From: Candidatus Moraniibacteriota bacterium
GTDB lineage: Bacteria > Patescibacteriota > Minisyncoccia > Moranbacterales > UBA2206
Length of the DNA: 64,000 bases
NCBI GenBank assembly: GCA_049303795.1
Contig: JBAQNM010000004.1
Location: 8,623 to 72,622 of the forward strand
Reading direction: 5' to 3'
Shown: positions 397 to 8,402 of the stretch, piece by piece
Numbering within the stretch: position 1 is the first letter of the stretch
How the letters are laid out: each line of letters opens with the position of its first letter
Position numbers and translations under genes: made by a program
The notes under the pieces: model-generated
Told to the model about the DNA's origin: nothing
Databases searched by the model: none
Seen by the model: the letters and a program-made list of their open reading frames with translations, nothing else

Positions 397-1209
397 TTAA
401 CTGCTGGCACTAGAATATTTACTTAGTCCAAACTTCCAAACTTTTCTGGCAAGCCAAAAAAATATTATTGCTACTAAAAAAGATTCACTGACTAGTTGCC
501 ATTGGAAACCACGCGCCAAAATTTTTGCCGGGACAGTGGCAATAAATGCCAAGGGAAAAATAAAAGAAAAAATAAAATGCATGATTTTTCCATTGAAAAT
601 ATCTGTGGGATATTGAGATACTCGCACAACCGTATCTGCTACATGAAATCCGCCTGATTCAATCGTCCAAAATTTTATAGAAGTTAACATAACTGAAATG
701 CTGTAAATTATAATAAAAGCATTAAAAACTAAAATTAAATACCAAAAAATATTCAAAATAAATCCCCAGCCAAAATTTCCCAAATGACTGAGCGCAAAAA
801 TAATCACGCCAAGTCCTGTTACAATTCTCACCGCATCTTCCAAATCTCCACGATAAACTGAAACTAGAAACTGGCAATCCATTGGTTTTATAATCAAAGA
901 ATCCAGTGTTCCCATTTTAATGTGCTGACCAAGAATATGGATGAAAGCACAGCTGACCCACATCATACCATCCAAAAGCAAAACTGTTCCCACCACCAGA
1001 AGAGCTTCGTAATAATTCCAACCATGAATACTCTGAACCCAGCCAAAAATTATTTTAATAAAAAATAAATTGAAAAATAGTTGCAAGAAAACAGCAAAAG
1101 TCATCAGGGAAAAACCAAAGCGATATGCCACCCGCTCAACGAAGTTTATCTTTTTAAAAAGAATAAAAATCTTAAAATATTTTTTAATCTTAAGCGCCTT
1201 GTCCTTCAT
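397..1209 (-). CDS. ABC-2 type transporter permease
   Basis: 270-aa polytopic hydrophobic protein immediately upstream of the ABC ATPase. It overlaps the upstream permease gene, consistent with an operon. Confidence 0.6.
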   Translation of the reverse strand: MKDKALKIKKYFKIFILFKKINFVERVAYRFGFSLMTFAVFLQLFFNLFFIKIIFGWVQSIHGWNYYEALLVVGTVLLLDGMMWVSCAFIHILGQHIKMGTLDSLIIKPMDCQFLVSVYRGDLEDAVRIVTGLGVIIFALSHLGNFGWGFILNIFWYLILVFNAFIIIYSISVMLTSIKFWTIESGGFHVADTVVRVSQYPTDIFNGKIMHFIFSFIFPLAFIATVPAKILARGFQWQLVSESFLVAIIFFWLARKVWKFGLSKYSSASS

Positions 1210-1981
1210 ATTTTTCCAAACCTTTTTTAAAAATAAAATTAGCCAAAAATCCTAGTATCAAAATCCAAATTAAGACCGGAATAAAAATCCGTAAATTCAA
1301 CTCCATCTTTCCACTCCAAATGGCAATGGGAAACCAAGTGATAAATCTAAATGGCAGAAAATTATTAATACTAGAAATTATTTTTGGCAAAAGATCCAGT
1401 GGCATAATATTCCCCGCCAGAAAAAACATAATCATCCGCACAAGAAAATTAAATCCCCTGACGTCACCCAGCCAAAAAGTGGCCAAACCGACTATATAGA
1501 AAAATAAAACAAAAATTATAAAGGCTAAAAAAATTGAAAGAATAAAAAAACCAAGCTTAACAAAATCCAAACTGCCATCAAAAAAATTAGTGCTGAATAA
1601 AATTATAGGCACCATAACAATAAAAGAAATAAGCAGATTCAAAAAAGACTTTCCCGCTACAATCCAAAACGTTGACCAAAAATAATTTATTGGCTTCAGA
1701 ATGAAGTTGGTAATATTTCCAAGTCTAATCTCATCACCAATTCTCCAAGCTACATCCACGCCTTGAATTACAAAAGAAATAATAGCCGAAAGAATATAAT
1801 AACTAATAAGCCCATTTAGTGAATATCCCCCAACCTGATTCCCTTCGGCGTAGATAGCTTTCCAAAGAAAAATAAAAACAAACAGCGAAATTGCCTGTGA
1901 AACAATAAGCATGAAAATATGCGAGCGATACATCAACGCTTCAGAAATAGAATTTTTGAAAAATAATAGGTATTTATACAT
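1190..1981 (-). CDS. ABC-2 type transporter permease
   Basis: 263-aa protein with multiple predicted TM helices. First gene of a permease-permease-ATPase operon. Confidence 0.6.
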   Translation of the reverse strand: MYKYLLFFKNSISEALMYRSHIFMLIVSQAISLFVFIFLWKAIYAEGNQVGGYSLNGLISYYILSAIISFVIQGVDVAWRIGDEIRLGNITNFILKPINYFWSTFWIVAGKSFLNLLISFIVMVPIILFSTNFFDGSLDFVKLGFFILSIFLAFIIFVLFFYIVGLATFWLGDVRGFNFLVRMIMFFLAGNIMPLDLLPKIISSINNFLPFRFITWFPIAIWSGKMELNLRIFIPVLIWILILGFLANFIFKKGLEKYEGQGA

Positions 1982-2216: not shown

Positions 2217-3230
2217 ATGAATTCTAGCATAAAAAACATTTTAGTAACTGGCAGTTCCGGCATGATTGGAACAGCGCTCGTGCAAGCACTTCAAAAAAAG
2301 GGCTATGGTGTCTATGGTTTTGATATAAAAGAACCAGCTATTTATAGTGATTTCAAATATAAAGTTGTTGACCTTACTAAACCTGTAGAGGAATCTTTTG
2401 GTGTAAATATAGATTTGGTCATTCATCTTGCTGCCCACGCCAGAGTATATGAACTTGTTATTGATCCAGCAAAAGCACTTGAAAATGCGACTATGGTTCA
2501 TAATATCTTTGAATGGTGCCGAAAAAATGAAGTTAAAAGATTTTTATTTGCTTCATCAAGAGAAACATATGGAGATCAAACAGAATTGCCCGTCAAGGAA
2601 AGTGTTGCCAATCAACGTTTTTCAAAAAGCAACTACACGGCTGGAAAGATTTTTGGCGAAGCTTATTGCTATTCATATAGCCATTGTTACAATATGCAAT
2701 GCAAAATAATGCGTCTTTCTAATGTTTATGGAAAATATGATTTCTCTGATAGATTTATTCCAAAAATAATTAACCAATTTATCAACGATCAAGATGTCAC
2801 TATATATGGAGAAAACAAAACCCTAGATTTCACCTATCTTGATGATTGTGTTAATGGAATTTGCCTACTTATAAATAAATATGATGTATCTGCTTTTTTA
2901 GAATACAATATTGCTTCAGGCACACAATCCAGCTTAATTGATGTCGCTCAAAAAATAAAAGACCTACTCGATTCAAAAGCAGAAATTAAAGTTGGTGAAA
3001 ATCTCACTGGTGAGGTTTTTAATTATCAAGCGGATATTTCTCGCATGAAAAACATAGGCTATGCACCAAAAATATCAGTTGAAGATGGAATAGAAAAATC
3101 GCTTGGCTATTATAGTGAATATTTCGCACCAAAAAAGAGCCTTGCCTCTCTTGCTATTGAACAATTAAAAATAGAATCGGAAAAATTAGGAACAGAATTT
3201 TCAGAATCGCTTTGTCCGGCTTTGGATTAA
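2217..3230 (+). CDS. NAD-dependent epimerase/dehydratase (SDR family, UDP-sugar epimerase-like)
   Basis: N-terminal Rossmann motif GSSGMIGTALV. Catalytic YxxxK (YTAGK). 337 aa. Confidence 0.85.
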   Translation: MNSSIKNILVTGSSGMIGTALVQALQKKGYGVYGFDIKEPAIYSDFKYKVVDLTKPVEESFGVNIDLVIHLAAHARVYELVIDPAKALENATMVHNIFEWCRKNEVKRFLFASSRETYGDQTELPVKESVANQRFSKSNYTAGKIFGEAYCYSYSHCYNMQCKIMRLSNVYGKYDFSDRFIPKIINQFINDQDVTIYGENKTLDFTYLDDCVNGICLLINKYDVSAFLEYNIASGTQSSLIDVAQKIKDLLDSKAEIKVGENLTGEVFNYQADISRMKNIGYAPKISVEDGIEKSLGYYSEYFAPKKSLASLAIEQLKIESEKLGTEFSESLCPALD

Positions 3231-3260
3231 TTTTTGAAAATGATAGTATTTTAGAAACAA

Positions 3261-3292
3261 AAAAACAGCGGTCAGATGACTGTTGTTTTTTT
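3261..3292 (+). terminator. rho-independent terminator
   Basis: Stem cagcggtca / tgactgttg (with G-U wobbles), loop gat, followed by a T7 run. Sits just after the epimerase stop. Confidence 0.6.
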
Positions 3293-3340
3293 GTTTAATT
3301 ATTAATCCCTTTCTTAATGTGGAAAAATGTGAAAAAAAAC

Positions 3341-3370
3341 TTGACAAAATACAGATAATCGTATTATTAT
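3341..3370 (+). promoter_or_regulatory. candidate promoter (TTGACA ... TATTAT)
   Basis: TTGACA at 3341-3346 and an AT-rich -10 (TATTAT/ATTATT) 15-18 nt downstream. Spacer length is ambiguous. Confidence 0.3.
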
Positions 3371-3521
3371 TTAATGTTATTTTATCGGCCATTTTATGGA
3401 TCGATTTATAACGGTTCATTTACAAATTATAGAATAAAAAGACTCAGAAAGGAGGGTTCTAGCTCAAAATTTTAGAGTGTCTGAAAACACAATTTTAACT
3501 TAATGAATCAGGAGGAAAAAG

Positions 3522-4253
3522 ATGGACAAAGACGATCCACGCTTTAAAAAATGGGAGACTATTTTCAAATGGGGCCTTGGATTTGGCGGTGCAATTGCCA
3601 TTTCCCAGGTAGCACTGTTGGCCATTCAAGGAATTCTTGGTCTGGTTGTAGCTATTGGTCTTGGAGAGACCATTATACAACTTGCGCCTGTTTTTTCCTT
3701 AAAATTGGCCAATTGGAAAATCAAACTTCTGACCGCTGAGGTTGAAGCCAATCCGATTGAGACATTAATCGGGTTGAAAATTGAAAAGGACCGTGAGTAT
3801 GGGCAAGCCGGTCAAGATATTGTCGCCTTTGAAACGGAAGTAAGAAACTTCCATGATGAGGTTGCAACGTTTGAGGGGCAGTTTCCCGAAGAAGCAGCTG
3901 CTTATAGAGACATCTACAAAAAAATGAGTAGTGGACTCGATGACATGAAAAAGCGCCAAGCTGAAGCTGCAACGAAACTTGATGCATTAAGCAAGACTAT
4001 CGAAAAAGCAAAGGCCATATACAAAATGTCCTTAGCGGCTGAACGAGTGACGCAACTTTCCAAGCCGGCAGAAGCAATCGTGTTTGCCGACATCAAGGAA
4101 AGGATTGCTTTTGACACAGTAAGGACGCAGTTAAATCATTCATTCGCGTCGCTAAACAATGCCGTTAACCTTCGACGAGAGATTCGCCCAAAAGCTTTTC
4201 CTCTCGGAGGAGAAAAAACCGCAGGACTTATCGAATCAAAGGAGGCCGTATGA
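3522..4253 (+). CDS. Hypothetical membrane-anchored coiled-coil protein
   Basis: AGGAGG Shine-Dalgarno 7 nt upstream. N-terminal hydrophobic segments (GLGFGGAIAISQVALLAIQGILGLVVAIGLG) followed by a charged, alanine-rich helical region. Noticeably higher GC than neighbouring genes. Confidence 0.6.
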   Translation: MDKDDPRFKKWETIFKWGLGFGGAIAISQVALLAIQGILGLVVAIGLGETIIQLAPVFSLKLANWKIKLLTAEVEANPIETLIGLKIEKDREYGQAGQDIVAFETEVRNFHDEVATFEGQFPEEAAAYRDIYKKMSSGLDDMKKRQAEAATKLDALSKTIEKAKAIYKMSLAAERVTQLSKPAEAIVFADIKERIAFDTVRTQLNHSFASLNNAVNLRREIRPKAFPLGGEKTAGLIESKEAV

Positions 4254-4399
4254 AATTCAGAATTATAGCATCAATTTTACTCATTGCTGCAACCTTAACC
4301 GGCTACTGGCTTTTTTACAGCAGTGATCAGACAACTGACAAGCCGGAAACGCAACAAATCGAAGAAACCACCCACAAATCACCTTTCATAACGAACTAA
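4250..4399 (+). CDS. Small membrane protein (49 aa), translationally coupled
   Basis: The ATG overlaps the upstream TGA stop (ATGA). MKFRIIASILLIAATLTGYWLFYSSDQTTDKPETQQIEETTHKSPFITN has one TM helix. Absent from the ORF track because it is under 60 aa. Confidence 0.4.
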   Translation: MKFRIIASILLIAATLTGYWLFYSSDQTTDKPETQQIEETTHKSPFITN

Positions 4400-4414
4400 A
4401 AAAAGGAGCAACTC

Positions 4415-5497
4415 ATGAAAAAAATGAATCGTTTGTTTTGGGCTATCGCATGTGTTTTTGGAATATTTTTTTCAAGCCCGGTATTTTCTGAGGAAGGCAA
4501 GGCTCCGGCCTCCTGCCCCAAAGAAAAAATCGCTGTGGCAACAGGAATTTCAACCGGAACATATTCAAAAATGTTTCAATCAGTCGCCAATCTGCCGGAA
4601 CTGAGCGACATCGTTTGTGAATACACGCAAACAAGTGGCGGCTATGACAACGTCCTGCTCTTGATGGATCGAAAGGTTGATGCAGGCATCGTTCAGGCCG
4701 ATGTGTTCGACTTCCTGAACAAAACCAATCCGGATATCAGGAAGAACTTAAGAAGCCTTTTTGCCATGCATGGAAGCTCCATGCACATCTTTGTTCTGAA
4801 AAATGGAACGGAGTGTAAAACGGTGACTCCTGGAAAAATTCGAATGCTGGATAAAACCGTAACATCGATTGTAAAAATCGAAAACCTTCGAGATCTCAAG
4901 GGTCTCAAAGTCGCCGCGCTCAGCAGTGCAGTTGTTACGGGAACTGAGGTGAGCGATCTGTTAAAGCTCAATCTCGACATTGTCGAGACAACAAAAGATG
5001 GTGGCTTTGAAAAGCTGAAAAATGGCGAGGTATATGCATTCCTGGCCATGGGCGGCAAGCCGATCGATTGGATTGATAAGGTTGATGCGAACATTTTCAC
5101 ATTAGCCAATGTCGATTCGACAGACATTCAAGCCCTGGGGTCTCCCTTCTACAATACCAAATTGCAGTATAAAAAATTCGGCGCTATCGGCACCAACGCC
5201 ATAACGGCGAGAAACGACTTTGTCGTCTGGGATTATAAAGGGAAAAAATCCGCCCTGCTTTCAAAAATTTATGATACTGTTTTTGAAAATCTGGCGGACG
5301 TCAAAGAGGACATGAGTTCTCATCCATGCTGGCAGGAAATAACCGAGGAAAATATTACCGACGTTTTCTGGCAGAAATATGAGCCGCCGGCCACCAATAA
5401 GTCAAAGCGGGAAAAGGTTGAATCAGAATCGACTTCTGAGCAACCATCCTCAGAAATGGTTATCACTCCTGCTGTAAAAAAACACCGCGGAAAATAA
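4415..5497 (+). CDS. Secreted periplasmic solute-binding protein, TAXI/PhnD-like fold (orphan; no permease nearby)
   Basis: AAGGAG Shine-Dalgarno 7 nt upstream. Signal peptide MKKMNRLFWAIACVFGIFFSSPVFSEEG. The motif KIAVATGISTGTYSKMF...TSGGYDNVLLLMDRKVDAGIVQADV resembles TAXI-family TRAP solute receptors. Confidence 0.5.
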   Translation: MKKMNRLFWAIACVFGIFFSSPVFSEEGKAPASCPKEKIAVATGISTGTYSKMFQSVANLPELSDIVCEYTQTSGGYDNVLLLMDRKVDAGIVQADVFDFLNKTNPDIRKNLRSLFAMHGSSMHIFVLKNGTECKTVTPGKIRMLDKTVTSIVKIENLRDLKGLKVAALSSAVVTGTEVSDLLKLNLDIVETTKDGGFEKLKNGEVYAFLAMGGKPIDWIDKVDANIFTLANVDSTDIQALGSPFYNTKLQYKKFGAIGTNAITARNDFVVWDYKGKKSALLSKIYDTVFENLADVKEDMSSHPCWQEITEENITDVFWQKYEPPATNKSKREKVESESTSEQPSSEMVITPAVKKHRGK

Positions 5498-5526
5498 TCT
5501 CATTTTCCGAAAAAAGTTAAACCAGT

Positions 5527-5563
5527 CCATCACTATGCGAAGCGTAGTGGTGGGCTTTTTTTA
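5527..5563 (+). terminator. rho-independent terminator
   Basis: Stem ccatcacta / tagtggtgg, loop tgcgaagcg, then gcttttttt. Follows the stop of the solute-binding protein gene. Confidence 0.55.
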
Positions 5564-5603
5564 TAAAAAAGCCATTTCAGAGAAATGACTTAACTATGGG
5601 ACA

Positions 5604-5636
5604 ATCGGTCTGCTCGATAAAAAATGTAGTGTGCGG
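5604..5636 (+). repeat. 33-bp perfect direct repeat, copy 1 (atcggtctgctcgataaaaaatgtagtgtgcgg)
   Basis: Identical 33-mer recurs at 8075-8107. Confidence 0.9.
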
Positions 5637-5873
5637 CGGATTCTGAAAGAAGCTCGAACTTTCTTTGAAAAGCAGGCTTGAATTTCTCCGCTCCGCTTCC
5701 GCCCGCAAACTTTGAAGAAGTTTGCGTTCCAAAACAGAAAAATTTTCTCTACTTTTCGGATTTTGTATGCGCGCCGATTTTTTCAAAAAAATGAAAAGGA
5801 AATTTTTCTGGTTTTGGAGTTCGCATAGCGAACGGCGGAAAACGGAACCTCAATAAATAAGTACTGATTATAT

Positions 5874-6629
5874 TTATTTTACTGGCTTCCCTATATCCCA
5901 TAACGCCTTATAAAAAATTCGCATGGTATCGGCATATGATTTGCTTTCAATAACAAAGCTGTAATTTTCTTCTAATGGAGCAAATGAAGCAACGACATCA
6001 TCATAAATTAAAAGTGAATTATTTAGTTTCATGCCTAGTGGCAATTCTCGTGCTTCGCGATTTGTAGGTTTCAGTGTTTCCGTCGCAAAATAGCGATGCG
6101 TGCTTTTTTGTCCATGATTTCTCAGAACTTTACTTTTGATGCCTCTCCTTCCTGCTTTTTCAATATACTGCTCAATAAACTGTTTGCCTAAAATATCCGT
6201 GGCAGCTTTATGAGCAATTGTCCAAAAGACTTCTTTTCCCCTAGCTTCCAATGCATTTAGCCAGATTCTTTTCATGCCCTCCTTACCGCGATAATATTTG
6301 AAATTAGTGGAAAACTTTTCTGCTTCAAATATTTTTTTAAGCTGTGGTAATGATTCATTTAATGCATCCTGGTTTCTTTTTTGTATTTCCCCTAAAACAT
6401 CCGGGCTCTCAGCGATATAAATTATTTTTTTACCTTTTTGCGTCTGACTTACTAACCCCAACTGAATTAACTTCTCTAAAAAATTATACACTGTCGTTCT
6501 TTTCACCTTGGCTTTGCTGGAAATTTCTTGCACCGACCCACTGCCTAATTCCAAACAAGCTAAATAAATTTTAGCTTCCTTGTCAGAAAAACCCAAATTT
6601 TTTACAAAAACGACAGCACTCTGATCCAT
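5874..6629 (-). CDS. TrmB-family HTH transcriptional regulator
   Basis: N-terminal winged-helix LGFSDKEAKIYLACLELGSGSVQEISSKAKVKRTTVYNFLEKLIQLGLV. A paralog lies at 42636-43439. Confidence 0.7.
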   Translation of the reverse strand: MDQSAVVFVKNLGFSDKEAKIYLACLELGSGSVQEISSKAKVKRTTVYNFLEKLIQLGLVSQTQKGKKIIYIAESPDVLGEIQKRNQDALNESLPQLKKIFEAEKFSTNFKYYRGKEGMKRIWLNALEARGKEVFWTIAHKAATDILGKQFIEQYIEKAGRRGIKSKVLRNHGQKSTHRYFATETLKPTNREARELPLGMKLNNSLLIYDDVVASFAPLEENYSFVIESKSYADTMRIFYKALWDIGKPVK

Positions 6630-6762
6630 AAAATAATCTATTTAATTTTGTCTATATTATAGACAAATAGTATTGAATTTGTCAAGTTTCCTGCTATACT
6701 AAACAACCATTGCAACATCGTTGTTAGTGGCAAGTTCGTTAAAATCTAAATGGAGGTTATTT

Positions 6763-7695
6763 ATGAATGATAAAAATAAAAGATTTATTTACACTCGAGG
6801 ATTTCTTCTCCCAGATGATCAGAGCACAATTATGAGCGAATCATCACTTTCTCCAGATTTTATTGCTAAATATCGTGAGGGAAAATTTAATCAATCTACT
6901 AATGATATTCCCTTTAATGTCGGCGATATTTTTAACGAAACAAAAAAGATTCTCAAAGAAATTCATGGCAAACCGCTTACCGTAGATCCGATTCCTGCAG
7001 TTTTCACTGGCGATAATTTTATTATGGCAAGAAAGCTGTTTGATCTTCGTCCTGCGTTTTCACCTGGTGCTGAAATACTAAAAGAGATTTGCGAAAATAA
7101 ATGGGCAGAAAATGGCAAAAATCGGTGGCGAACATACTGCGAACACTTGGAAGAAGATGAAAAAGAAGAAATGATTCATGATAATTTTGTCAGAAAAGTC
7201 ATTTTTTCAAATTGGCCACGCGGGTGGTATCTTTATGATGCCACTGATTTAAGAAAAGAGCGTGCTATTCTTTCTGACAAAGAACATCCTACTCACGACA
7301 AACTCGCACCTCTCATCGCAGAATTAAGAAGAACAAAAGAGGTTGGCGGATACGACAACACTCCGCCAAGCACGCGCAAATCTCTTTTTATAAACGCTGA
7401 ATGGCCAAAAGTCTTAGCCGGACAAGAGGCAATTTTGCCGTTCCTAAAAACTGGAGTGGGATCCATCCTTTCCTATTCCGCATTCTATATGATAGGGCAT
7501 ATGTACGACAAAAATTTGTTACATACATATGCAACTACTTACTTTGCTGAAATTACACGAGGACTTTTTGGTATCTGGCGACGCTCATCAATCGCTCCGT
7601 GTAAGTATCATCGCATGGAGATTAGGCAATCGGCGACAGATTCTCTTCGTCCAGTAGGAATATGTCGCACATTTTGGGGTTGGAGGACGTTGTAA
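6763..7695 (+). CDS. Hypothetical protein (310 aa, no recognisable domain)
   Basis: Start chosen at ATG 6763 with a GGAGG Shine-Dalgarno 6 nt upstream; the track's TTG at 6721 is in frame. No motifs recognised. Confidence 0.6.
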   Translation: MNDKNKRFIYTRGFLLPDDQSTIMSESSLSPDFIAKYREGKFNQSTNDIPFNVGDIFNETKKILKEIHGKPLTVDPIPAVFTGDNFIMARKLFDLRPAFSPGAEILKEICENKWAENGKNRWRTYCEHLEEDEKEEMIHDNFVRKVIFSNWPRGWYLYDATDLRKERAILSDKEHPTHDKLAPLIAELRRTKEVGGYDNTPPSTRKSLFINAEWPKVLAGQEAILPFLKTGVGSILSYSAFYMIGHMYDKNLLHTYATTYFAEITRGLFGIWRRSSIAPCKYHRMEIRQSATDSLRPVGICRTFWGWRTL

Positions 7696-7700
7696 ACAAA

Positions 7701-7736
7701 GAGGCTCAGTAGAAAATCACTGAGCCTTTATTATTT
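7701..7736. terminator. hairpin terminator (bidirectional) between convergent genes
   Basis: Stem aggctcagt / actgagcct, loop agaaaatc, with T/A-rich flanks. Confidence 0.6.
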
Positions 7737-7760
7737 AACTTTTTTATTAATAAACATTAT

Positions 7761-7958
7761 TCACTTTGATAGCTCATAAGCCGAAATTCCTAAGGCTTTT
7801 GCAATTTTTTCAATATTTAAAAGCGTGGGATTTCTTTTGTCATTTTCAATCCCGCTAATGTAAGCTCTATGCACATCTAATTTTCGGGAAATATCTCCTT
7901 GCGATATTCCTTTTTGAGTTCTGATTCTCTTTAAATTGTTGCTCGGTTTAGCAGAAAT
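7761..7958 (-). CDS. XRE-family (Cro/C1-type) HTH regulator; start codon unresolved
   Basis: Reverse translation gives ...NNLKRIRTQKGISQGDISRKLDVHRAYISGIENDKRNPTLLNIEKIAKALGISAYELSK*. No in-frame ATG/GTG/TTG precedes the HTH. The ATG at 7998 is in another frame, separated by a T5 run at 7961-7965. Confidence 0.55.
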   Translation of the reverse strand: MSAKPSNNLKRIRTQKGISQGDISRKLDVHRAYISGIENDKRNPTLLNIEKIAKALGISAYELSK

Positions 7959-8074
7959 TGTTTTTGCTTCTATTGGCGGTTTTAGTGTTTTTGATCATTT
8001 AGTTCGGGTGTCCTATTCTCCTTCGGATTTTTAGACTTTGCGATTTTTTGCAAAATGGCCTAAAATTGAGGCTC

Positions 8075-8107
8075 ATCGGTCTGCTCGATAAAAAATGTAG
8101 TGTGCGG
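8075..8107 (+). repeat. 33-bp perfect direct repeat, copy 2, overlapping the last 3 nt of tRNA-Asp
   Basis: Identical to 5604-5636. It abuts and overlaps the 3' end of tRNA-Asp at 8105-8107. Confidence 0.9.
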
Positions 8108-8178
8108 GGACGGCCGGACTCGAACCGGTGACCTACTGCGTGACAGGCAGTCGCTCTAACCAACTGAGCTACGCCCCC
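8105..8178 (-). tRNA. tRNA-Asp (GTC)
   Basis: Cloverleaf GGGGGCG..GCCTGTCACGC..GGTTCGAGTCC..CGTCCCCG. Anticodon loop CTGTCAC. No encoded CCA. Confidence 0.85.
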
Positions 8179-8207
8179 GTGTGAATATTTTATTTTAAAT
8201 CAATTCG

Positions 8208-8282
8208 TAGCAGGGGTGGGGATCGAACCCACGAACCTCAACGTTATGAGTGTTGCGCTCTAACCAACTGAGCTACCCTGCC
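8208..8282 (-). tRNA. tRNA-Met (CAT), elongator-type (or tRNA-Ile2)
   Basis: GGCAGGGTAGCTCAGTTGGTTAGAGC..CTCATAA..GGGTTCGATCCCCAC..CCCTGCTA. Closely resembles an elongator tRNA-Met. G1-U72 pair. Confidence 0.7.
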
Positions 8283-8329
8283 AACATAACAAACGACTCA
8301 CTGCGTTTTATGCTTATTATAAGTTTTTG

Positions 8330-8402
8330 TTGCGGGGGCAGGACTCGAACCTGCAACCTTGTGGTTATGAGCCACACGAGCTGCCAATTGCTCCACCCCG
8401 CT
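8330..8402 (-). tRNA. tRNA-fMet (CAT), initiator-like
   Basis: AGCGGGGTGGAGCAATTGGCAGCTCGTGTGGCTCATAACCACA..GGTTCGAGTCC..CCCCGCAA is near-identical in layout to E. coli initiator tRNA. It has A11:U24 and A73, and an unpaired A1xA72. Confidence 0.7.

Follow-up and report, generated by a model that had tools for sequence, protein, structure and literature searches.

The stretch analyzed here is a 64-kb window of a Candidatus Moraniibacteriota genome, a member of the Candidate Phyla Radiation (CPR), and all positions are given in the numbering of the whole window. Between positions 3522 and 5497 it carries three co-oriented genes, which we name A, B and C in that order and refer to together as the cassette. 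Gene A (3522-4253, forward strand) encodes a 243-residue protein with a predicted two-helix membrane hairpin and three-helix coiled-coil bundle, gene B (4250-4399, forward) a 49-residue single-pass microprotein, and gene C (4415-5497, forward) a 360-residue protein in which a signal peptide precedes a TAXI-like type II binding-protein fold. Each is preceded on the same strand by a strong Shine-Dalgarno site, namely AGGAGG at 3510-3515 for A, with the ATG read directly from the sequence 6 nt downstream, AGGAGG at 4240-4245 for B, and AAGGAG at 4403-4408 for C. The start codon of B at 4250 overlaps the stop codon of A (TGA at 4251-4253) in an ATGA arrangement, and all three open reading frames (ORFs), their ribosome-binding sites and the translational coupling read from this DNA in a first-pass annotation are present. 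A candidate operon promoter at 3341-3370 (forward; TTGACA, 18-nt spacer, TATTAT) lies between A and the terminator (3255-3296) of the upstream neighbor, an epimerase gene (2217-3230); it is an 11/12 match in a consensus scan alone, for a group of bacteria whose promoters have not been validated. A terminator-like hairpin of 15 pairs followed by a T-run (5524-5556, forward) likely marks the operon end. No riboswitch or other RNA element that might name a ligand was found upstream of A, three tRNAs being the only features to reach an RNA-family threshold. In the public record, the A and C proteins correspond at 100% identity to the NCBI entries WAV31_00970 and WAV31_00980.

Although first described as an oddity of this locus, the trio proves to be a conserved, self-contained cassette of jumbo and huge phages that is also scattered over bacterial phyla. 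After pooling and dereplication, the comparison covered 49 distinct loci of the A family, each with 1.3 kb or more of downstream sequence, and in 44 of them a TAXI-like C is found on the same strand downstream of A, within 260 nt in 33 of the 44. The A and C proteins of the window match the phrog_27316 and phrog_6856 pair, with the order and spacing seen in those 44 related loci. The flanks, by contrast with this constancy, differ wholly from one locus to the next, ranging over rpoC/ftsK, groEL, mraZ, murJ, insertion sequence elements and phage genes of nucleotide, RNA-repair or nicotinamide adenine dinucleotide (NAD) functions, and the pairwise identities of A and C correlate with each other at an r of 0.62, a value reached by none of 2000 Mantel permutations. 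Clustering of about 50 loci identifies A and C as the large genes held in common, with no third conserved large gene, and neither this clustering nor a Pfam scan of 133 phage neighbor proteins reveals a permease, lysis gene or integrase as a conserved extra neighbor. Viral carriers comprise 36 IMG/VR contigs, many of them 100-520 kb long, and the cassette is likewise present in the cultured jumbo phages RP12, RP31 and phiRSL1 of Ralstonia, Motura of Achromobacter, and RYC and Va1 of Vibrio, with the trio appearing as ORF195/194/193 in both RP12 and RP31, where the same 4-nt overlap is seen, and as gp278/277/276 in Motura. Bacterial copies fall into CPR bacteria (Wolfebacteria and another CPR-like contig), Acidobacteriota and Proteobacteria, the carriers also including Terracidiphilus, a gammaproteobacterial metagenome-assembled genome (MAG), a 4.2-Mb genome and a contig with a dcw cluster, and many of these copies are flanked by housekeeping genes and not by defense islands. 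The closest relative, the contig that carries the proteins P0003 and P0034, was compared by its gene map. Full-text literature searches turned up no description of the A-B-C trio.

The C protein consists of an N-terminal signal peptide without a lipobox, a structured core of about residues 37-316 and a disordered Ser/Glu/Lys-rich tail (about 324-360), the C proteins of many family members ending in a basic, Lys-rich tail. In a Foldseek search of the Protein Data Bank (PDB) with its AlphaFold2 model (mean predicted local distance difference test (pLDDT) score 74.6, core mostly 70-96), the top seven matches are all TAXI proteins, with 8s4j, 9ibo, 1us4, 9ibp, 8u79 and 4ddd among those listed, at E-values from 1.5e-12 (8s4j) to 4e-11, about 300 aligned columns and target-normalized TM scores of 0.60-0.66; the third of these, 1us4, bears the title 'putative GluR0 ligand binding core'. 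A binding-protein fold is thus clearly present in the 360-residue product, and the TAXI likeness originally assigned to its N-terminal domain extends over the whole length. It does not reach the curated profile thresholds: the hidden Markov model (HMM) TIGR02122 scores 38.1 bits (E 7.7e-10) against a cut-off of 84.35 and covers residues 4-137 only, and PF16868 (NMT1_3) scores 24.3 bits (E 2.9e-5) against a cut-off of 27, a precomputed PF16868 match being present in some relatives. The protein belongs to phrog_6856 (E 8.5e-16), a family labeled 'unknown function'. In a profile alignment to 8s4j, based on the sequence profile only, Y50 and Q94 of C correspond to Y45 and Q93 of VcGluP, whose alanine mutants lose 213-fold and 990-fold glutamate affinity, respectively. 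Across 35 family members Y50 is found in 100%, the group of Y50, D96 and H124 in 97-100% and Q94 in 80%, and position 121, which pairs with VcGluP E125, is occupied by Glu in 80% of family members and by Ser in the window protein. Compared with VcGluP, C has some 20 additional residues, an insertion modeled as a β-hairpin. Because the Tyr/Gln ligand-contact pair is retained, C probably binds a small polar or carboxylate ligand, for example an amino acid.

Hydropathy places two adjacent hydrophobic segments in the A protein, at residues 17-35 and 38-56, with a two-residue turn between them, and in 33 homologues the flanks of this region are both net positive (+1.6 and +2.6), which fits a hairpin with both termini in the cytoplasm (N-in/C-in). 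The inter-helix turn measures 2-4 residues (K/Q-G) across the family and includes no re-entrant loop; the hairpin itself is rich in Gly and Ala, with G37, G48 and P56 conserved. Among the invariant features are P56, N64 and a juxtamembrane N77-P78-I79-E80 (NPIE) motif; a conserved C-terminal helix contributes N205 and L211. The AlphaFold2 model (pLDDT 78.7) shows helices at 78-120, 122-179, 181-194 and 197-221, so that hydropathy and model together bear out the N-terminal membrane segments and long helical or coiled-coil region first read from the sequence. The protein belongs to phrog_27316 (E 2.4e-37), again labeled 'unknown function', and an exhaustive profile search assembles a family of 743 representatives at 50% identity, nearly all 230-290 residues long. 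No informative Pfam or NCBIfam match was found for A, comparison of its profile with PDB sequences gave nothing below E 0.02, and no output domain of the HisKA/HATPase_c, MCPsignal, GGDEF/EAL or helix-turn-helix (HTH) kinds was matched by Pfam or NCBIfam in any of the three proteins.

The kinships once proposed for A did not survive. PspA/IM30 gives an hhalign probability of 0.3% (against E. coli PspA) and no Pfam PspA_IM30 match at E ≤1, LemA gives no PF04011 match at E ≤1, and the similarities to LemA, TelA-like and syntaxin proteins amount to sub-threshold coiled-coil noise (Syntaxin E 0.014, Fez1 E 0.11). A relationship to ZorA and the MotA-ExbB stators was likewise rejected: the match (17.7 bits, E 2.3e-4) aligns A residues 96-216 with the coiled-coil ZorA tail (506-624) and includes no part of the membrane core. 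It is the single hit among the defense systems in PADLOC.

The B protein contains a single hydrophobic segment by hydropathy. Its ORF, its membrane segment and its overlap with A stand as first reported, but it is not unannotated everywhere, being called as a 49-residue gene on at least eight public contigs and having annotated counterparts in RP12, phiRSL1, Motura, RYC and the Burkholderia megaplasmid pMBR01. In most related loci a B-like ORF of 38-66 residues starts -3 to +30 nt from the A stop, and in many it overlaps that stop by 4 nt (start-minus-stop offset -3). A common pattern runs through these sequences: an MK[FY]RI[IL] start is followed by a single hydrophobic helix and then by about 27 residues of polar, Pro/Gln-rich tail, with a short hydrophobic-x-hydrophobic motif (GLVIN, LKNLKIN or PFITN, for example) at its end. 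Conservation of position, length and motif identifies B, by these sequence criteria, as a real gene and not a chance ORF. Its charge distribution, with a short positive N-side and a 27-residue net-negative C-side, supports an N-in/C-out topology, and most B sequences have neither a Cys nor a lipobox. An apparent covariation of the B tail with the C lineage was suggestive in four loci and blurred once metagenome loci were added; it is not claimed here.

A binding-protein fold follows immediately after A in 48 of the 49 loci, TAXI-like in 44 and of a different kind in the remaining four (L017, L026, L042 and L053, from three viral loci and Burkholderia arboris), where an N-terminal hydrophobic anchor, an SBP_bac_3 domain and a peptidoglycan-binding LysM domain are united in one protein that starts -7 to +21 nt from the A stop. 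The SBP_bac_3 match is above threshold in the three viral copies (E 2e-13 to 3e-14), the B. arboris domain being assigned from its sequence, and the LysM module places the binding domain at the cell wall. Among large proteins, the anchor of these fused proteins gives the top-ranked match to B, in register with it. Statistical homology between the two was not obtained (E 0.79-51), the segment being too short for significance, a result that counts against the receptor interpretation given below. These four loci point to a binding fold that can be exchanged while A is kept, with the covalent anchor taking the role of B. In one further viral locus (L043), a secreted β-rich protein of about 350 residues without a Pfam match (5779-6840 of that locus) follows A, the TAXI-like C lying 2 kb further on, and in P0123 (574 residues), from the same viral lineage, A is fused to the β-rich protein, which may represent a third kind of extracytoplasmic partner for A.

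No TRAP or ABC importer permease goes with the trio. The 64-kb window encodes no TRAP permease and no ORF with at least eight hydrophobic segments, the annotated related loci contain no DctQ or DctM Pfam match, and no importer permease is conserved near any locus, so that the hydropathy scan of the window and the neighbors of related loci agree with the first-pass annotation that no TRAP permease or ABC importer partner is encoded nearby. Two adjacent ABC2_membrane_6 genes (397-1981, reverse strand) do code for ABC-2 membrane proteins upstream of the epimerase gene, and on the public contig an ABC ATPase adjoins them just beyond the window start; these are presumably exporter-type genes, which are unrelated to C and do not constitute its importer partner. 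In RP12 (L006) the trio is followed by a ModA/ModB-like pair (SBP_bac_11 and BPD_transp_1). ABC transporter subunits were considered on this account as a conserved partner of the cassette and dismissed, this pair being specific to RP12.

Other neighborhoods deserve mention in their own right. The trio lies beside NMNAT/Nudix and NAMPT genes in phiRSL1 (L007), beside phosphoribosyl pyrophosphate synthase and nicotinate phosphoribosyltransferase in Vibrio phage RYC (L056), and beside homospermidine and glutathionylspermidine synthases in Motura (L054), and P0185, a homologue of A, continues into what by eye resembles a NAMPT fragment, through either fusion or mis-joining. These auxiliary-metabolism neighbors and P0185 may hint at the ligand class, or may reflect an accessory-gene region only. 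On the Burkholderia sp. MBR-1 megaplasmid pMBR01 (L052, 246724-261356), the trio sits between an RES-family NAD+ phosphorylase toxin, a NERD nuclease-domain protein and a tyrosine recombinase, a mobile or defense-island-like setting unlike the housekeeping flanks of most bacterial copies.

The first-pass annotation had suggested a sensing or signal-transduction module more than a transporter, and sensing is indeed a plausible fit to the evidence. In the interpretation that we favor, tentatively and with a little less than even confidence, the cassette is a membrane-tethered ligand-receptor complex that signals or gates through A and does not transport. C would be exported as a Venus-flytrap binding protein of the TAXI type for a predicted small polar or carboxylate ligand; B, oriented N-in and C-out, would be made in a fixed ratio with A by way of the ATGA overlap, and its extracytoplasmic tail would hold C at the membrane. 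The two-helix hairpin of A, with both ends in the cytoplasm, could then pack against the B helix, such that closure of C on its ligand is relayed to the juxtamembrane NPIE motif and the three-helix cytoplasmic bundle, with an output that may consist either of protein-protein signaling to a partner or of gating of an A oligomer. Several observations weigh against this scheme. AlphaFold2 shows residues 7-76 of A as a single continuous helix with no hairpin, which leaves the topology of A to hydropathy and charge; A has no recognizable output domain; the TAXI HMM scores of C fall under the curated thresholds; no binding protein could be detected at one locus (L046), and at L043 a different secreted protein separates A from C; and the benefit to lytic jumbo phages is not apparent. 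A broader proposal, doubtful at this stage, is that the trio represents an unrecognized class of split transmembrane device, in which a novel hairpin/coiled-coil membrane protein is under the control of a Venus-flytrap receptor that is tethered by a microprotein and can be swapped (TAXI-like or SBP_bac_3-LysM), and by which jumbo and huge phages, and bacteria that have taken up the cassette, would convert the reading of a periplasmic small molecule into a cytoplasmic signal or a gated permeability, for instance in lysis timing or competitor exclusion.

That the three genes merely lie side by side with no joint function, B being a spurious ORF, is scarcely credible and already contradicted by the data: short hydrophobic ORFs such as B do arise easily and A has no known family, but the A-B-C order recurs in 44 of 49 distinct loci with unrelated flanks in phages and several phyla, the B motif is conserved and in most loci the B start keeps a spacing of -3 to +30 nt to the A stop codon, and A and C co-vary. 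A more substantial alternative, which we nevertheless consider unlikely, is that C boosts uptake by feeding a transporter encoded elsewhere (a host TAXI-TRAP, GltS-like or ABC system), with A and B anchoring or docking it and the whole acting as a phage auxiliary metabolic gene. Cyanophages carry pstS, a precedent for a phage-borne binding protein. The TAXI ligand residues are retained in C, the trio is found among auxiliary metabolism genes in phages (NAD salvage in phiRSL1 and RYC, polyamine synthesis in Motura, the ModA/ModB-like pair in RP12), and there are documented orphan binding proteins whose permeases are encoded at a distance (PMC5812351, PMC12344293). Simple anchoring, however, would not require a conserved cytoplasmic bundle of 180 residues and its invariant motifs, and dependence on any single host permease is ruled out for a cassette that moves among phages of different hosts as well as CPR bacteria, Acidobacteriota and Proteobacteria; the exchange of the binding fold while A is kept and the lack of a candidate permease within the window speak against this alternative as well.

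Two further explanations keep the extracytoplasmic receptor and change what it would do. An A hairpin oligomer could form a holin- or channel-like pore that opens under the tethered binding protein and serves lysis timing, superinfection exclusion or abortive infection, an explanation we regard as quite unlikely even though the Gly/Ala-rich hairpin with conserved G37, G48 and P56 resembles oligomerizing pore helices and class II holins have the N-in/C-in two-helix topology predicted for A. Enrichment of the cassette in lytic jumbo phages, the pMBR01 copy between RES toxin, NERD nuclease and recombinase, and the union of a binding domain with a few pore helices, which recalls GluR0 and ionotropic glutamate receptors (iGluRs) as does the title of 1us4, could all be accommodated by such a pore. 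Yet no holin, channel or defense-system model matches A beyond the 17.7-bit ZorA tail, the context is not that of a lysis cassette (1 of the 133 phage neighbor proteins is a cell-wall hydrolase), many bacterial copies reside amid housekeeping genes and not in defense islands, and there is no selectivity-filter-like motif. Very unlikely, in our estimate, is an envelope tether or cell-wall monitor whose extracytoplasmic domain would bind a peptidoglycan fragment or the wall itself and, linked via B and A to a cytoplasmic scaffold, report or stabilize the envelope state. The LysM domain of the fused variant and the basic Lys-rich C tail of many members would suit it, and SBP_bac_3 modules do occur in wall enzymes such as MltF, but LysM is confined to 4 of 49 loci, a small ligand is what the conserved Tyr/Gln pocket suggests, the BAR-like similarity is generic, and the cassette is hosted by envelopes as unlike each other as those of CPR bacteria and Proteobacteria.

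Comparison with characterized systems helps to delimit the proposed receptor complex. With the TAXI-TRAP transporters (VcGluP-VcGluQM, TtGluBP) it shares the TAXI fold of C, its weak TIGR02122/PF16868 similarity, the equivalents of VcGluP Y45 and Q93, and secretion; it differs in that C stays below both curated thresholds and carries the insertion of about 20 residues relative to VcGluP, that no fused DctQM with at least 16 transmembrane helices is adjacent in the window or in related loci, and that A and B together make up a 3-helix-equivalent membrane set, which cannot form an elevator transporter. An operonic TAXI protein that works with a non-TRAP membrane partner is known from the TAXI-GltS pair of Bordetella pertussis (BP0403/BP0402; PMC12344293). 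There the partner is a polytopic Na+/glutamate symporter, unlike the two-helix hairpin/coiled-coil A and the 49-residue single-pass B found here. Binding proteins are known to drive signaling proteins, docking on chemoreceptors, sensor kinases or cyclases (review PMC8050422). In such systems an extracytoplasmic Venus-flytrap likewise reports its ligand to a membrane protein with a cytoplasmic helical domain and without transport; the cassette departs from them in that A has no known output module, the tether is a separate microprotein and the system is phage-borne. The cassette resembles cyanophage PstS in being a phage-encoded periplasmic binding protein among auxiliary metabolic genes. PstS acts through the PstCAB of the host and requires no membrane partners from the phage, whereas the cassette has two dedicated, strictly co-inherited membrane proteins.

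The Psp system (PspA with PspB/PspC) and LemA are superficially alike in presenting an α-helical coiled coil of about 220-240 residues beside a tiny single-pass protein, but no homology to A was found, and to our knowledge their operons have no secreted binding protein. Identity with a two-component spanin/holin lysis cassette was rejected as well, given that most B proteins have no lipobox Cys, that 1 of 133 phage neighbor proteins is a cell-wall hydrolase and that CPR bacteria, which also carry the cassette, presumably lack an outer membrane. A GluR0/iGluR-type channel was set aside on account of the missing ion-channel Pfam match and the 2-4-residue turn of A without a re-entrant loop, the likeness being architectural only. 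Membership of A in phrog_27316 and of C in phrog_6856 is clear, though these PHROG entries make no mention of the obligate pairing that links the two families and B.

What is known here is the TAXI fold itself, and what is new is its pairing with a novel A/B membrane pair characteristic of giant phages. TRAP and TAXI binding proteins are defined by their transporter partners, and in the cassette the fixed partners of a TAXI-like protein are instead two small, hitherto undescribed membrane proteins, the family of A counting some 740 representatives at 50% identity and having no Pfam model. Kept across giant phages, at least three bacterial phyla and CPR lineages, this pairing offers a concrete alternative partner for the 'orphan TAXI' problem. 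It further assigns a context to two PHROG families labeled 'unknown function' that occur in cultured jumbo phages (RP12, phiRSL1, Motura, RYC and Va1), where genetics is feasible, and gives an example of an ultra-small CPR genome that has taken up a cassette of phage type. Should the complex indeed signal or gate on a periplasmic ligand, it would constitute a new way for phages to sense host surroundings.

Composition agrees with such a capture. GC content rises from about 0.27 at 3300-3499 to 0.42-0.50 across 3500-5500 and is back down by about 5800. With GC values of 0.445 each and third-codon-position GC (GC3) of 0.406 for A and 0.488 for C, these two genes are the top two in both measures among the 56 window ORFs of at least 100 residues; relative to the other 54, the z-scores are 2.7 in GC for both and 3.2 (A) and 5.3 (C) in GC3, and B has a GC3 of 0.44. 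The elevation of 3522-5497 over the window background is thus well beyond chance, and horizontal acquisition of the cassette in the Moraniibacteriota genome, as first surmised, fits both this composition and the phyletic scatter; direct repeats flanking the cassette itself were looked for and none was found. A nearest-relative comparison of 3522-5497 with five loci (L001, L004, L008, L011 and L015) shows that the two large genes differ in affinity. The nearest relatives of A are CPR-type proteins at 52-56% identity, in loci whose C is only 18-21% identical to that of the window, and the nearest relatives of C are those of proteobacterial-type loci at 40-42% identity, with A at only 16-17% in L008 and L011 and 47% in L015. 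Such discordance suggests that the cassette has recombined internally, which would fit receptor modules that can be swapped.

To the right of the cassette, a perfect 33-nt direct repeat (5604-5636 and 8075-8107), of which none is expected by chance, bounds a 2.47-kb islet (5604-8107) with the look of an att-flanked integrated element. Its right copy overlaps the 3' end of a tRNA-Asp gene (8104-8178, reverse strand). The islet contains a TrmB-like HTH regulator gene identified by HMM match (5874-6629, reverse), which is the next gene after the cassette and convergent with it, a 324-residue ORF (6721-7695, forward) without a match in Pfam, NCBIfam, PHROGs or PADLOC, and a 70-residue XRE/HTH_3 gene, also assigned by HMM match (about 7770-7990, reverse); no recognizable integrase is present among its genes. 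The first-pass annotation had taken islet and cassette together as foreign DNA. The repeat-bounded islet is confirmed, a shared origin is not: its two large ORFs, the TrmB-like and the 324-residue one, have an ordinary GC3 of 0.31 and the repeats do not enclose the cassette, which makes separate acquisition of the two probable. The same islet occurs in three other public MAGs. Directly to its right lies a cluster of tRNA-Asp, tRNA-Met and tRNA-Met genes (8104-8402, reverse), a typical integration hotspot, with the cassette and the islet both located on its 3' side.

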